From: a virus | DNA length: 64,000 bases | Strand: one strand, 5' to 3' | UHGV virus genome: UHGV-0293664 | Part shown: positions 1 through 9,528 of the stretch, piece after piece | How positions within the stretch are numbered: the first letter of the stretch is position 1 | How the letters are laid out: each line of letters starts with the position of its first letter | The notes under the pieces: generated by a model | The model's input: only the letters and a program-made list of their open reading frames with translations | What the model was told of the DNA's origin: nothing | Databases searched by the model: none | Position numbers and translations under genes: made by a program

Positions 1-458
1 TTGACAGTATGAATGCGGGAATCATCACCAAGTGGAACTCTGTTGTGTCACCTGCAGACACTGTGTTCCACTTGGGAGATATTGCGTGCACTAATGATAA
101 GAATATCAACAACTTACTTCCAGATATTCTAAATATGTTGAACGGACATATTATTCTTGTTCGTGGCAACCATGACACAAGGACGACTGTCAGAATTATG
201 AAAGAGTTCGGTCATGAGGTTGTAGATTATTACGAGCTTCGCCACAACAAGAATTTGATCTGTATGAGCCATTACCAGTTTGCAAAGTGGAACAGAAAGC
301 CTCACGGATCAGTCCAACTGTTCGGTCATGCTCACGGAACCACACAGCAGTTGTTTGGCAGGCAGTTTGATGTCGGTTGGGATGTGTGGGGGAGACTCTT
401 ACCATTAGAAGAGGCATACCGTATTGCAATGAGTCTTGCTATTGACAGCGGGGAGTAA
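1..458 (+). CDS. Ser/Thr protein phosphatase-like metallophosphoesterase, 5' end outside window
   Basis: ORF 9..458 stays open to the window edge; motifs GDIACTND, RGNHD and GHAHG match calcineurin-like phosphoesterase motifs II, III and the GHxH motif; the first DxH motif is absent, so the N-terminus is probably upstream. Confidence 0.55.
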   Translation, partial: DSMNAGIITKWNSVVSPADTVFHLGDIACTNDKNINNLLPDILNMLNGHIILVRGNHDTRTTVRIMKEFGHEVVDYYELRHNKNLICMSHYQFAKWNRKPHGSVQLFGHAHGTTQQLFGRQFDVGWDVWGRLLPLEEAYRIAMSLAIDSGE

Positions 459-505
459 TCCCTGCTATTTTAAAGAAAATTGCCACACAAGGAGAATCAG
501 GAGAT

Positions 506-856
506 ATGAAAGATGGGGATAAGCTGCTATATCTTAAAGTCCCCCTTGAAATACTATCTATGTCAAAAGTTTTGAATGACACAACTGGGGAGGTTGTTGT
601 TCTTGACTTATATGACAAGATCGTATACTGCTACCTGCACAACTGGTATAAGCTTGGAGGAAATTCACGCTTCACACCCAGCACAAGGAAAATTGCAGCA
701 GATGTAGGGATAAAGAAAACAAAAGCAGCAGCGTGCGTTAAAACTTTAGAATGTGCAGGAGTGGTTGAAATATCCACACAAGGGAGAGGTAAAAGATGCA
801 CATTTTCCAAAGTTTTGCCACCAGAAGAGGTTATTCGAATGTCAACAACTGATTAG
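506..856 (+). CDS. small DNA-binding protein, winged-HTH-like (possible origin-binding or regulatory protein)
   Basis: 116-aa ORF with RBS GGAGAA upstream; C-terminal segment STRKIAADVGIKKTKAAACVKTLECAGVV looks like a helix-turn-helix; sits immediately upstream of an iteron array. Confidence 0.35.
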   Translation: MKDGDKLLYLKVPLEILSMSKVLNDTTGEVVVLDLYDKIVYCYLHNWYKLGGNSRFTPSTRKIAADVGIKKTKAAACVKTLECAGVVEISTQGRGKRCTFSKVLPPEEVIRMSTTD

Positions 857-928
857 ACCAGTAAAAACTTAAATATCTGTACTATAAGGATTCGTATGTT
901 TTATGTTCGCCATGGAACAGACACTGTT

Positions 929-1015
929 AACTGTCCGTGATACGGACACTACTGTCCGTCACGCGGACACATCTGCCCGTAATACGGACACTAACTGTCC
1001 GTGATACGGACACAT
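929..1015. repeat. four tandem copies (about 21-bp period) of palindrome GTCCGT-N3-ACGGAC; iteron or operator array
   Basis: Core 15-mers at 934-948 (gtccgtgatacggac), 954-968 (gtccgtcacgcggac), 975-989 (gcccgtaatacggac), 997-1011 (gtccgtgatacggac). Confidence 0.7.
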
Positions 1016-1144
1016 AAAGAATATAACTAAAATAACTAAATAATAAAAATAAAAAGATCTAGTACTTATGGTACTAAAGTACATATACTTAACTTATGTA
1101 GAATATACTAGATCCTAAGTACCATGTTTTAAAATTATTACTTA
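1016..1144. other. AT-rich tract with shuffled inverted repeats (gatctagta / tactagatc; atggtact / agtaccat); possible DNA unwinding element
   Basis: Very high A+T, no ORF, lies between the iterons and a GC-rich island. Confidence 0.4.
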
Positions 1145-1400
1145 CTATAGGTAGTGTCGGCCCTTCATTGGCACTCGCCTACGAGGGGCGAGATGCCGGG
1201 CCTCCATGGTGCACACAATAACAGAAGTGCATACATGCAGGTCTGTTAACATGTGTGGGAGCGAAGCGATAGCGCAGGCCAAAGGCCGAGCACTGATGTG
1301 GACCACCGACGAAAGCTTGCCAGCGCCGTAAGGAGTCGGTTGAGAGTCTCCCGCGCGAGCTTGGATGAAGTTTATGTGTGGAAACGGACAAGAAGGCACC
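1145..1400. other. GC-rich non-coding island, candidate structured RNA or foreign insert
   Basis: Abrupt rise in G+C versus flanks; no plus-strand ORF; only overlapping minus-strand ORFs in two frames (1145..1399, 1179..1391) as expected for GC-rich non-coding DNA. Confidence 0.3.
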
Positions 1401-1517
1401 TAAATCGCTCCACAGCTATATAAACTGCACCAAGTAGGGCAATCACATCAGTTTGATAGAAAAGCTCGTTACAAAGCGATACAGTGAGTTTTTCTATAAC
1501 TTGAAGAGGAGGCTGCT

Positions 1518-3396: not shown

Positions 3397-3471
3397 GCCC
3401 TGTTAGCTTAGTGGATAAAGCAGCGGCCTTCTAAGCCGTTGACACTGGTTCGAGTCCAGTACGGGGTGCCA
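3397..3471 (+). tRNA. tRNA-Arg (anticodon TCT)
   Basis: Hand-folded cloverleaf: 7-bp acceptor stem (two G-U pairs), D-loop with GG, anticodon loop cttctaa, T-arm actgg-ttcgagt-ccagt, encoded CCA. Confidence 0.7.
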
Positions 3472-3601
3472 AGTTCTTTTTAATGTAGCTTACTTTAGCA
3501 GAGTAAATCTTCGGCAAGTGGCGGTAACCACTTTACCGATACCTCATAGTTAGTGGTGAGAACACTAGCTATTTTAAAAAGAATTTAAATATTAGTATTT
3601 A

Positions 3602-3689
3602 GGTGAGTTAATTCCGTAGGGGTAGCGGGGCAGACTGTAAATCTGTTATCATTGCGATTCGGGTGGTTCGACTCCATCACTCACCACCA
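3602..3689 (+). tRNA. tRNA-Tyr (anticodon GTA), long variable arm
   Basis: Acceptor ggtgagt/actcacc, anticodon loop ctgtaaa, long variable arm, T-loop ttcgact, encoded CCA. Confidence 0.7.
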
Positions 3690-3803
3690 AATTTATATTT
3701 TTAAATGCATAAATCATACAGATAATGGCATTGATATTTATCGTCGTTTATACTAGTCACTAACTGCTCGAAAATCAGTGTCATTATCAGTATTGTTTAT
3801 AAA

Positions 3804-3894
3804 AGAGGGTAGGGAGCAATGGTGCTCAAGCGGTCTTGAAAACCGTCCCGTTGAGGATGACTCGATGATGGTTCGATTCCATTATCCTCTGCCA
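3804..3894 (+). tRNA. tRNA-Ser (anticodon TGA), long variable arm
   Basis: Acceptor agagggt/atcctct, anticodon stem gcggt/accgt with loop cttgaaa, long variable arm, T-loop ttcgatt, encoded CCA. Confidence 0.7.
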
Positions 3895-3992
3895 TATTGT
3901 TGACCTTGTAATTAAGCGAAAGCCGGAAGCAGAACCGGATTATCAAATGTTACAGTCGTCATCGCCGACTAGCAACATGGTCAACATACTGA

Positions 3993-4089
3993 GCTAGGTA
4001 AGCCCTTTGGCAAGGGCGAGGATTTTTAATCCTGAAAATAGACGAGGTAGTCGTTGAATACATAGGTGGTTCGATTCCATCACCTAGCA
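3993..4089 (+). tRNA. aberrant 97-nt tRNA-like gene (possible anticodon TTT; isotype unresolved; may be a pseudogene)
   Basis: Perfect 7-bp acceptor stem gctaggt/acctagc, canonical D-arm gccc-tttggcaa-gggc and T-arm ggtgg-ttcgatt-ccatc, but about 30 extra nt between anticodon and T arms and no encoded CCA. Confidence 0.4.
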
Positions 4090-4096
4090 CCTTTTT

Positions 4097-4172
4097 GCTG
4101 ATGTAGCACAATTGGTAGTGCAATTGATTTGTAATCAATAGGTTGCAGGTTCGAGTCCTGCTATCAGCACCA
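4097..4172 (+). tRNA. tRNA-Thr (anticodon TGT)
   Basis: Acceptor gctgatg/tatcagc, anticodon stem attga/tcaat with loop tttgtaa, T-arm gcagg-ttcgagt-cctgc, encoded CCA. Confidence 0.75.
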
Positions 4173-4173
4173 T

Positions 4174-4248
4174 GGCCCTGTAGCTGGAAGGTTCAAGCAA
4201 GCGACTCATAATCGCCAGACGGTGGTTCAATTCCACCCAGGGCCACCA
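4174..4248 (+). tRNA. tRNA with CAT anticodon (Met, or Ile if lysidine-modified)
   Basis: Perfect acceptor ggccctg/cagggcc, anticodon loop ctcataa, T-arm ggtgg-ttcaatt-ccacc, encoded CCA; D-stem and first anticodon-stem pair are imperfect. Confidence 0.6.
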
Positions 4249-4259
4249 AATAATAAATA

Positions 4260-4336
4260 CTCCGCGTAGCTCAGCTTGGTAGAGCGCCTGATTTGGGATC
4301 AGGAGGTCGAGTGTTCGAATCACTCCGTGGAGACCA
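4260..4336 (+). tRNA. tRNA-Pro (anticodon TGG)
   Basis: Acceptor ctccgcg/cgtggag, D-arm gctc-agcttggtag-agcg, anticodon stem cctga/tcagg with loop tttggga (G37), T-arm gagtg-ttcgaat-cactc, encoded CCA. Confidence 0.75.
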
Positions 4337-7971: not shown

Positions 7972-9528
7972 GTGTCCAAAAAGAACCGCAGGAAACACAA
8001 CGCCACAGCCAAAACTGTGAATAAATCTGGGAACGCAGGCGCACCAACTCATAATGTTCGTATGAGTGAGATCGGTTCTGGCGCACTTTCCCAAATTATG
8101 GCAGAATCGCAATCTATGATGGTTGAGGAATTGCGTTGGCCTCAGCTGATTGCCACCGTGGAGACTATGAAATGTGATTCCACAGTTGCTACTGCCTTAG
8201 ATACAAAATATGTTTTCATCACGAAAGCATTCAATGATTTTAAGATCCTTTATAATGTTAAAAGTGAAGACTCTAAGAAAGCTGCAGAGCTTATAGAGTA
8301 TTCTTTGCGTAATTTGGCAAACCAACAAACTCTTCGAGATATCGCAAGAAGCGCAGCTACCTTTAACGAGTATGGTTTTTCACTGTTTGAGAAAGTATAC
8401 CGCAGAGAGAAAGAAGGTAAATATGCCGGGATGCTTCTTATTGATAAAATTGCATTCCGACCTCAGGCCAGCTTGTCCAGATCAGAGCCGTTTGTTTTTG
8501 ACAAGAATAGTAGAACACTGACAGGTATTTATCAGTCACCTAATGCATTTCTAAACACTCAGAATGCACGCTGGGCTGGACCTCTTGCTGCAATGCCTTC
8601 AAAAGGCTTTAATGAGCCTGAAATTTTCATCCCTGCTAAAAAGCTTATGCTCATGACCCTGTCAGGAACAGAATCTAACCCTGCAGGTGTATCACCAATG
8701 ATAGGTTGCTACAGATCTTTCCGTGAGAAAGTTCTGATTGAAAACCTTGAGGTTGTTGGCTGTTCCAAAGACCTTGGTGGTGTGCTTGAGCTGAAAATTC
8801 CTTCCAATATTTTGAACAAGGCCAGCATTGACCCGAATTCAATGGAAGGGAGAATGGTTGCAGACCTTATGCTTGACGCAGCAAACGCCCATAGTGGTGA
8901 GCAAAGTTTCTTTATACTTCCGTCTGATAGAGATAAGTCTGGTAAAGAGCTTTACTCCATGACCCTGAAGGGGGTTGACGGTATGGGTAAGCAGTATTCC
9001 ACTAAAGATTTGATTGATGCCCGTAAGAAGGCGATTCTTGACCGTTTCGGTGCTGGCTTTATTAACCTTGGTAACGATAACGTCGGATCTTTCTCTCTGT
9101 CTGAGTCAAAACAGTCTATCCATGGTCATTTTGTTCAGCGTGATATAGATATTATCACTGAGGCCTTCAATAAAGATCTTATCCCACAGCTTCTGGCATT
9201 GAATGGTATCATCCTTGAAGATGATGATATGCCTAAACTGAAACCTGGTCTGATTGAAGAGGTGGACATGGAGAGCTTCTCCAAGTTTGTCCAGAGGATC
9301 GGTGCTGTAGGTTACTTGCCAAAAACTCCTGCAGTAATTAATAAGATTCTTGAAGTAGGCGGGTTTGATGAAAGATTTGACGAGGACATGGATCAGGAAG
9401 AGCTGATGAAGCTCTTGGGCCAGGACATTAGTAGGGCTGGTGATGGAATGGCTGCAGGATCCACTGGCAACGGCACTTCTAAGATGTCATCAACCAGAGA
9501 TAATTCCATATCCAACATGGAAAATTAA
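7972..9528 (+). CDS. portal protein
   Basis: 518-aa ORF (GTG start after RBS GAGGGG) directly downstream of terminase; size and position typical of portal; no motif check possible. Confidence 0.55.
   Translation: MSKKNRRKHNATAKTVNKSGNAGAPTHNVRMSEIGSGALSQIMAESQSMMVEELRWPQLIATVETMKCDSTVATALDTKYVFITKAFNDFKILYNVKSEDSKKAAELIEYSLRNLANQQTLRDIARSAATFNEYGFSLFEKVYRREKEGKYAGMLLIDKIAFRPQASLSRSEPFVFDKNSRTLTGIYQSPNAFLNTQNARWAGPLAAMPSKGFNEPEIFIPAKKLMLMTLSGTESNPAGVSPMIGCYRSFREKVLIENLEVVGCSKDLGGVLELKIPSNILNKASIDPNSMEGRMVADLMLDAANAHSGEQSFFILPSDRDKSGKELYSMTLKGVDGMGKQYSTKDLIDARKKAILDRFGAGFINLGNDNVGSFSLSESKQSIHGHFVQRDIDIITEAFNKDLIPQLLALNGIILEDDDMPKLKPGLIEEVDMESFSKFVQRIGAVGYLPKTPAVINKILEVGGFDERFDEDMDQEELMKLLGQDISRAGDGMAAGSTGNGTSKMSSTRDNSISNMEN

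Follow-up and report, generated by a model that had tools for sequence, protein, structure and literature searches.

The DNA analyzed here, a window of 64,000 nucleotides, belongs to a Vequintavirus (an rV5-like myovirus), a genus of coliphages with genomes of ~137 kb. In a megablast search, its first 3 kb matched ~117 full-length rV5-like coliphage records at 96 to 97% identity. In the gene order of this region, genes for a polynucleotide kinase and a phosphoesterase are followed by a gene for a 116-aa helix-turn-helix (HTH) protein (rV5 gp075, or ORF79) and by a 660-bp gap without annotated genes. Beyond the gap lie an open reading frame of 192 aa (ORF192), small ORFs, tRNAs, spanins, and the large terminase gene. 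GenBank records name the HTH gene "putative transcriptional regulator" or "replication initiation protein" (automated PHROG labelling), and a few of them annotate repeats in the gap as "repeat_region," without interpretation. A circular 137.6-kb "plasmid" record from an E. coli isolate is also a phage of the rV5-like kind.

The authors of the rV5 genome paper sought an origin of replication by skew analysis and found only changes linked to transcription direction (PMC3606486). Over the whole rV5 genome, we located the global minimum of GC/AT skew at 66,689, at a divergent gene junction 1.5 kb from the repeats; because the skew flips with every change of transcription direction, it is uninformative on replication, as the earlier authors likewise concluded (PMC3606486). 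A full-text literature search returned no paper pairing Vequintavirus with iterons. The features of the locus are as follows; window positions 930-1150 correspond to ~65.0-65.25 kb of rV5.

442..471, + strand: promoter-like site of the sigma-70 type 5' of the HTH gene, TTGACA-18-TATTTT with TG
506..856, + strand: HTH gene, 116-aa winged-helix protein, rV5 gp075/ORF79
857..927, no strand: spacer from the stop codon to the first repeat, roughly neutral, 74.6% identity to the divergent clade described below
928..949, no strand: iteron 1, TAACTGTCCGTGATACGGACAC, perfect palindrome core at 932-948
949..970, no strand: iteron 2, CTACTGTCCGTCACGCGGACAC, core at 953-969 with one mismatch
970..991, no strand: iteron 3, CATCTGCCCGTAATACGGACAC, core at 974-990 with one mismatch
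992..1013, no strand: iteron 4, TAACTGTCCGTGATACGGACAC, same as iteron 1, perfect core at 996-1012
1014..1144, no strand: A+T-rich tract of 131 bp (80.9% A+T), proposed DNA-unwinding element
1145..1517, + strand: adjoining G+C-rich tract, apparently non-coding

Phased palindromes and the adjoining tracts

Four copies of CTGTCCGT-N3-ACGGACAC occupy positions 928-1013, the first beginning 75 bp past the end of the HTH gene. A preliminary description of this DNA had reported four copies of GTCCGT-N3-ACGGAC at a spacing of about 21 bp, and the array is indeed built in this way: four 22-nt direct repeats lie 21, 21, and 22 bp apart from start to start, and each contains a 17-bp palindrome, TGTCCGT-N3-ACGGACA, that is perfect in copies 1 and 4 and has one mismatch each in copies 2 (GCGGAC) and 3 (GCCCGT). 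These spacings total 64 bp, or ~6.1 helical turns, which places the four sites on one face of the helix. The 3-bp center of the palindrome is GAT, CAC, AAT, or GAG, and no copy has a poly-A center.

The array is unique in its genome. Allowing at most one mismatch, we found no further palindrome in the 64-kb window, where 0.2 would be expected by chance, and the observed count was reached in none of 100 shuffles of the window. At the same threshold, the whole rV5 genome (137,947 bp) contains the four copies at this locus and one isolated intragenic site. A scan of 185,579 genomes for the single site returned isolated chance matches only, and the two-copy pattern was found in IMG/VR in one unrelated G+C-rich contig only.

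Some records annotate a small ORF across the repeats (903..1004), which we rejected as a gene. Its N-terminus and non-repeat residues diverge freely among relatives, and in one relative, with an HTH protein 70% identical to that of the window, its frame lacks a start codon. The preliminary description had named repeats that form a conserved part of a coding region in relatives as contrary to its reading; this is not the case here, and the repeats are therefore a DNA feature.

The A+T-rich region of about 130 bp that had been noted after the repeats corresponds to 1014-1144, the richest 131-bp A+T stretch of the window (the runner-up has 73.3%). Its rV5 counterpart is the A+T-richest 120-bp stretch of that whole genome, at 80.8% versus 75% for the runner-up. 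The tract contains tandem 9-mers, ATAACTAAA, at 1023-1031 and 1032-1040, and an A-run that ends at 1055. What had been called shuffled inverted repeats resolves into two interleaved pairs, GATCTAGTA (1056-1064) with TACTAGATC (1106-1114) and ATGGTACT (1068-1075) with AGTACCAT (1118-1125), each pair 50 bp apart from start to start; two GATC sites are included. Neither DnaA sites (TTWTNCACA) nor IHF sites (WATCAANNNNTTR) were found within 800 bp of the array. The nearest IHF-like site is at 104-116, and neither motif occurs above chance in the window; the lack of such sites is expected of a phage with its own replisome.

Directly after the A+T-rich tract comes the G+C-richest 300 bp of the window (1150-1449). 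Four of the five ORFs in this G+C-rich tract are broken in relatives, and the fifth (1253..1423) stays open with changes that are almost all non-synonymous, evolving like non-coding sequence; we rejected all five as genes. A conserved RNA structure was also rejected: the tract folds more stably than shuffled sequence (z = -3.6), but we found no compensatory pairs among 14 relatives, and rV5 lacks 18 bp of the largest hairpin. Searches against Rfam returned only tRNAs at the gathering threshold and, over positions 850-1560, only chance-level matches at E ≤5. The tract may or may not belong to the proposed origin; it could mark the boundary of an unwound region or be transcribed as a leader or another RNA.

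The promoter-like site upstream of the HTH gene (442..471) has its rV5 counterpart in the annotated promoter P76, and the palindrome motif is absent from it. Between 900 and 1200, we detected no sigma-70 promoter at 9/12 or better, only weak 8/12 matches, and no copy of the rV5 late-promoter motif, TGGTAAAATA, which occurs in excess on the + strand in other parts of the window (18 copies versus 5.9 expected). No terminator was predicted between the HTH gene and the downstream genes.

The 116-aa protein and its relatives

The small HTH-like gene that had been placed before the repeats is a real ORF, conserved in 119 phage records, and it encodes a winged-helix protein that is a near orphan. Among 1.8 billion cluster representatives, searched exhaustively with HMMER, 15 matched at E ≤1e-3, a tblastn search against phages recovered Vequintavirus only, and distant members of the subfamily were found only via a metagenomic intermediate. 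In Pfam, the protein matched HTH_36 and DUF6945 (PF22182), a family built on RepA of the satellite PLE, the latter at E 4.7e-6 and 27.1 bits, just under the cutoff of 28; RepA_N (PF06970) was not matched at E values up to 1, and Phage_rep_O was not matched. PHROGs places the protein in family 12838, "replication initiation protein."

Profile searches of PDB sequences consistently pointed to one structure, 4RO3, which is the N-terminal domain of RepA from PLE, a phage satellite of Vibrio cholerae (PMC7145576). It was the best match with a profile of close homologues (E 1.8e-6) and reached E 5e-12 over residues 8-115 with a family profile that included distant homologues; the next matches were generic MarR/CodY winged helices at 1e-4 or weaker. 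The 4RO3 sequence reaches 83.8 bits against DUF6945 and shares 34% identity with the phage protein.

Structure prediction gave the same result. A model from a 5-sequence alignment was unusable (pLDDT 44), and an AlphaFold model from a 21-sequence alignment reached a pLDDT of 81. With the latter, Foldseek ranked 4RO3 first among PDB entries and the N-terminal domains of staphylococcal RepA_N proteins (4PQL, 5KBJ, and 4PT7) at ranks 3 to 7; 5KBJ is such a domain bound to iteron DNA. The predicted fold also matches staphylococcal RepA 4PTA, and generic winged-helix repressors (MarR, CodY, and LexA) were weaker matches. Among predicted viral structures, the matches included ICP1 ORF88 (the origin-directed nuclease Odn), ICP1 ORF5, a 328-aa protein of coliphage Mt1B1_P17, and proteins named as replication proteins.

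The protein thus has the RepA_N/DnaD-N-terminal-domain fold, an N-terminal winged helix of ~120 aa, and its nearest relatives are replication initiator domains, not repressors, by a wide margin. It stops at residue 116, shortly after the wing, and has no nuclease domain. We conclude that it is a stand-alone homologue of the RepA_N/DUF6945 N-terminal DNA-binding domain, without the C-terminal domain. ORF192 as a split-off C-terminal domain was rejected, since Pfam gives no match for it and it does not resemble the genes that lie downstream of homologues.

Conservation and recurrence of the module

We compared the window with a divergent clade consisting of Logan metagenome contigs L009-L013 and phage Aya, in which the HTH protein is 87 to 88% identical to that of the window. 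The iterons are 96.5% and the A+T-rich tract 95.4% identical to this clade, versus 74.6% for the 71-bp spacer and 71.8% for third codon positions of the HTH gene. Pooled, 208 of 217 positions are identical in the iterons and tract versus 137 of 188 in the spacer and third positions (Fisher p = 3.7e-11), a pattern which indicates that the iterons and the A+T-rich tract are under strong purifying selection. The metagenomic relative with the 70%-identical protein keeps CTGTCCGTcacACGGACAG, and its upstream spacer is unalignable. The number of iterons is three in nomine and V18, four in most relatives, and six in O157 typing phage 14. It varies in whole 21-bp units only, so that the phasing is preserved.

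Longer homologues of the protein (146 to 217 aa) occur on phage-like metagenome contigs, typically near the start of an early operon and beside a large divergent intergenic region, and several of them adjoin phased G+C-rich palindromic repeats and an A+T tract. On one contig (L024), CCGCTAGTAGCGG-type repeats 23 bp apart lie directly 3' of the gene and are followed by A+T-rich inverted repeats; on a second (L027), a 23-bp tandem repeat precedes ~100 bp of A+T, and on a third (L030), many GCCGCTtAGCGGC-type palindromes lie upstream. Many of these longer proteins have acidic tails ending in PF or PY, which the Vequintavirus protein lacks. Similar C-termini are found in SSB and T7 gp2.5, where they make contacts with replisome proteins, and this resemblance suits replisome recruitment and an initiator role for the family. 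Genes for GIY-YIG/T5orf172 and winged-helix proteins adjoin homologues at two loci (L026 and L022), and one homologue (P0013) is a GIY-YIG-DUF6945 fusion.

Other genera of Vequintavirinae pair diverged small homologues with phased palindromes and A+T tracts of their own. The 107-aa gp227 of Erwinia phage pEp_SNUABM_01 scores 32.2 bits on DUF6945, above the cutoff, and aligns to the family in hhalign with a probability of 98.4%; an A+T tract and TGCTCAATTTGAGCA repeats at 23-bp spacing precede its gene. The 118-aa gp098 of Salmonella phage PVP-SE1 is a weaker match (HTH_36 E 0.014; hhalign probability 88%) and lies next to ATTCCC-N4-GGGAAT repeats at 24-bp spacing and to an A+T tract that contains four GATC sites. 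In both phages, the module is at the major divergent junction, and the repeats are found just 5' of the homologue's gene. From genus to genus, the sequences of protein and sites change and the layout persists, as expected of a co-evolving pair of initiator and origin.

A candidate replication origin and its alternatives

The preliminary description had seen in this locus the layout of a replication origin or a multi-operator control region. That general reading is supported, and the homology of the protein, the uniqueness of the array, the A+T maximum of the genome beside it, the strong selection on both elements, and the lack of a good promoter favor the origin. We postulate that the locus is probably the vegetative replication origin of Vequintavirus, of the RepA_N iteron type, with an initiator that consists of a DNA-binding domain only.

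A similar arrangement is familiar from phage lambda, whose origin has four dyad-symmetric iterons ~two helical turns apart, followed by an A+T-rich unwinding region. Dimers of the N-terminal winged-helix domain of lambda O bind the iterons, and the C-terminal domain recruits P-DnaB; the lambda origin is part of gene O itself, and the replisome is that of the host. Both loci thus have four phased dyad iterons directly adjoining an A+T-rich tract. However, a lambda-type (O protein) origin was rejected, as the phage protein has no detectable relation to Phage_rep_O and the repeats are intergenic.

Further parallels are found among RepA_N replicons. In the theta replicon of the Gram-positive plasmid pSK41, a 120-residue N-terminal domain dimerizes and binds four Rep boxes that lie within rep, immediately after the part that encodes this domain; the linker that the origin encodes can be dispensed with, and the C-terminal domain, which binds DnaG primase, is essential (PMC5703833). 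The order at the phage locus is the same, with the coding sequence for the N-terminal domain followed by four boxes, except that the phage frame stops first and no C-terminal domain follows. The winged-helix domain of pSK41 and pTZ2162 is likewise ~120 aa long, and the fold predicted for the phage protein matches 5KBJ, 4PT7, and 4PTA. Unlike the plasmid origins, which lie inside the rep frame, the phage repeats are intergenic; the plasmid iterons converge on an A-tract, whereas the phage centers are variable (GAT, CAC, or AAT), and sub-repeats that converge on an A-tract are not universal (PMC7145576). RepA_N plasmid replicons occur in Firmicutes, and their Pfam family is not matched by the phage protein.

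The PLE satellite provides the other parallel. Barth et al. showed that PLE RepA is by structure a member of the RepA_N family and, by EMSA, that it binds semi-palindromic "repeat 3" iterons. They also found that PLE replication needs both repA and the iterons and that, during ICP1 infection, repA plus the PLE non-coding region suffice for it (PMC7145576). PLE RepA relies on the replisome of ICP1, with its T7-like polymerase, gp4-type helicase-primase, and SF1B helicase (PMC7145576). In both PLE and the phage, semi-palindromic direct repeats stand in non-coding DNA close to the gene, and in both cases a lytic phage supplies these three proteins, which rV5 encodes as gp223 (T7-like polymerase), gp225 (gp4-type, or T7-type, helicase-primase), and gp232 (SF1B helicase). 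The two systems differ in that PLE has three repeats of ~30 bp, compared with three to six 21-bp units with a 17-bp palindrome here, and in that PLE is a parasite of a phage and the module described here is the phage's own. PLE RepA also carries a conserved C-terminal domain with a presumed role in replisome recruitment (PMC8263062), and the phage protein stops after the DNA-binding domain.

Based on these comparisons, we propose that the 116-aa protein, presumably made early, acts as a stand-alone N-terminal winged-helix domain of RepA_N-family initiators and that a dimer of it would bind each 17-bp palindrome. With the palindromes two helical turns apart, three to six dimers would line up on one DNA face in a bent nucleoprotein complex, which could destabilize the adjoining tract of 131 bp, whose duplex is the least stable in the genome. 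The gp225 helicase-primase would then load on the opened DNA, perhaps aided by gp232, together with the polymerase gp223. The initiator may need no recruiting domain, since a T7-type helicase-primase would, we suggest, load itself. Whether three to six phased dimers suffice to open the tract, so that replication starts without protein-protein recruitment, is a more tentative matter, and we offer it as a speculation that is somewhat more doubtful than not. If it is correct, the locus would be a minimal model for how RepA_N initiators fire, and satellites such as PLE might have taken their replicons from lytic phages with a replisome of this type.

Some observations weigh against an origin. Missing from the protein is the C-terminal domain, an essential part of pSK41 Rep and a conserved one of PLE RepA; Pfam RepA_N is not matched, and the DUF6945 score falls just short of its cutoff. 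Winged-helix proteins with phased palindromes are also typical repressors. We know of no precedent in the RepA_N family for an initiator that has the DNA-binding domain only. A single iteron origin may also be non-essential, as replication in large lytic phages may start from several origins or depend on recombination.

The alternative that deserves most attention is transcriptional control, in which the winged-helix protein would be a repressor or roadblock on four phased operators after its own gene. Such an array would halt or modulate read-through from the early promoter at 442-471 into ORF192, the tRNAs, and the lysis and late genes or, alternatively, act on an unrecognized promoter in the A+T tract. 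The name "putative transcriptional regulator" in many GenBank records fits this explanation, as do the MarR, CodY, and LexA repressors among the weaker structural matches, and with no terminator predicted after the HTH gene, read-through must be handled somehow. In the Erwinia phage and PVP-SE1, moreover, the repeats stand directly upstream of the gene, the classic position for autoregulation, and iteron-binding Rep proteins often autoregulate too (PMC5703833). However, a motif confined to a single locus implies no regulon, the array is clear of the gene's own promoter, and 900-1200 has neither a sigma-70 promoter at 9/12 or better nor a late motif. Control of transcription would also leave unexplained the attached, equally conserved, extreme A+T tract, and the closest relatives of the protein are initiator domains rather than repressors. 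We consider this explanation unlikely as the main function of the locus, and an operator or roadblock role may coexist with origin function.

Conflict with satellites is a further explanation, in which the RepA_N-like domain and the repeats derive from, or target, a satellite replicon; the protein would occupy the satellite's origin, as an Odn without a nuclease, or the phage repeats would titrate the satellite's initiator. RepA_N domains of lytic phages are known from the anti-satellite nucleases ICP1 Odn (Gp88) and Gp5, and the related myoviruses Inny, Muut, and Mt1B1_P17, all coliphages, carry such nucleases with the same RepA_N/DUF6945 DNA-binding domain (PMC8263062, PMC10055350). In the coliphages, this domain is fused to T5orf172 nucleases predicted to attack satellite origins (PMC10055350). 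Odn-type proteins were among our structural matches, and the GIY-YIG/T5orf172 genes beside homologues and the GIY-YIG-DUF6945 fusion described above point in the same direction. Yet these T5orf172/GIY-YIG fusions are aimed at the origin of a satellite, whereas the 506..856 protein has no nuclease domain and its presumed sites lie in its own genome. Across 5,426 complete E. coli genomes, we found no DNA resembling the gene or the repeat array, iteron-like sequence included, and among E. coli plasmids the only related DNA was a phage genome deposited under that label. All 119 Vequintavirus records have the module, which is fixed and strongly conserved, unlike accessory arms-race genes, and diverged versions occupy the same genome junction in other genera, all of which makes a satellite-directed function improbable. 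Slightly less probable again is a packaging (pac) site or a centromere-like partition site for an episomal genome. Three metagenome contigs and one GenBank record start or end within the array, the large terminase gene is ~4.3 kb downstream, and the circular "plasmid" record from E. coli is such a phage. The contig ends are equally explained by heterogeneity in repeat copy number or poor coverage of the A+T tract, however, and the homology of the protein is to initiator domains rather than to small terminases or ParB/ParR/TubR, with no partner NTPase adjoining its gene.

Read as a probable origin, the locus would differ from known RepA_N replicons in having an initiator cut down to its DNA-binding domain, in residing in a large lytic enterobacterial phage, and in being intergenic rather than intragenic. 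The link to RepA_N and PLE RepA would place an initiator type of Gram-positive plasmids and of a Vibrio satellite inside lytic enterobacterial phages, and it also connects the module to the origin-directed nucleases of related phages. A version with the DNA-binding domain only would be a simple test of what this domain can do without a recruiting domain. The rV5-like phages rank among the most often isolated coliphages and serve in typing, biocontrol, and model collections. With an origin and initiator defined, mini-replicons, engineering handles, and studies of replication would become possible in these phages.

Interleaved inverted repeats and the G+C-rich stretch

The A+T tract (1014-1144) contains, at 1056-1125, two inverted-repeat pairs arranged in the order A-B...A'-B', interleaved rather than nested. 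A G+C-rich stretch lies directly 3' of the tract.

1056-1125, pair A/A': GATCTAGTA with TACTAGATC, 50 bp apart
1056-1125, pair B/B': ATGGTACT with AGTACCAT, 50 bp apart
1145-1517: G+C-rich stretch

Both GATC sites of the A+T tract are located in the interleaved repeats; the equivalent tract of PVP-SE1 has four such sites. The repeats could be bound by a second protein or serve in control that depends on methylation.

The G+C-rich stretch, which includes the highest G+C content of any 300 bp in the window (1150-1449), does not look protein coding. The only ORF that stays open within it is 1253..1423 (rV5 gp074), in which the changes are almost all non-synonymous. When folded as RNA, the + strand of 1145-1517 is more stable than its shuffles (z = -3.6). 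An Rfam search of the stretch returned no match, no compensatory base pairs were found in it among 14 relatives, and its largest hairpin has an 18-bp deletion in rV5.

Elsewhere in the window, a motif resembling the rV5 late promoter, TGGTAAAATA (≤1 mismatch), occurs 18 times versus 5.9 expected; almost every copy lies on the + strand among the structural genes (5700-50500). One tRNA gene cluster was also detected.

3397-4333: six tRNA genes (Rfam tRNA matches), two of them long (85 and 97 nt) with weak scores

Tails and nuclease fusions of winged-helix homologues

In an alignment of the winged-helix protein (product of 506..856) with its homologues (A3), the longer homologues (P0009, P0016, P0017, P0025-P0027, and P0029-P0032) have an acidic C-terminal tail that closes with PF or PY. 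These tails resemble the C termini of SSB and T7 gp2.5 and may be replisome-recruiting peptides. The Vequintavirus protein has no such tail.

On two other loci, genes with GIY-YIG/T5orf172-like N termini immediately follow the homologue genes (L026 4551-5144 and L022 856-1428), and the L026 product ends in a winged-helix C terminus. Homologue P0013 is itself a GIY-YIG-DUF6945 fusion. The architecture common to these genes and P0013 is that of the origin-directed nuclease Odn.

Contig ends, similar palindromes, and database records

Three metagenome contigs (L008, L014, and L028) end within the repeat array, and the GenBank phage record MG065672.1 begins there, at window position 928. These ends are likely to reflect either variation in repeat copy number or low coverage of the adjoining A+T tract, although they may alternatively be physical DNA ends.

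On an unrelated, G+C-rich viral contig (L153; IMG/VR 3300037465_000174), TTCCGTGACACGGACACTCCTGTCCGTGAGCGG occurs at positions 8050-8090, flanked by two small divergent genes. It comprises 1.5 copies of a similar palindrome and is probably an unrelated operator.

Campylobacter jejuni is given as the host in eighteen GenBank MG0656xx records titled "Campylobacter phage". These share 97% identity with rV5-like coliphages and are probably mislabelled or contaminant genomes. Plasmid record CP057073.1 (pRHB39-C03_2; circular, 137,565 bp) belongs to an E. coli isolate obtained from cattle faeces and consists of one complete rV5-like phage genome, including the winged-helix gene, repeat array, and A+T tract. 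This record points to a phage kept in a carrier state or as an episome, or else to one co-assembled with its host.
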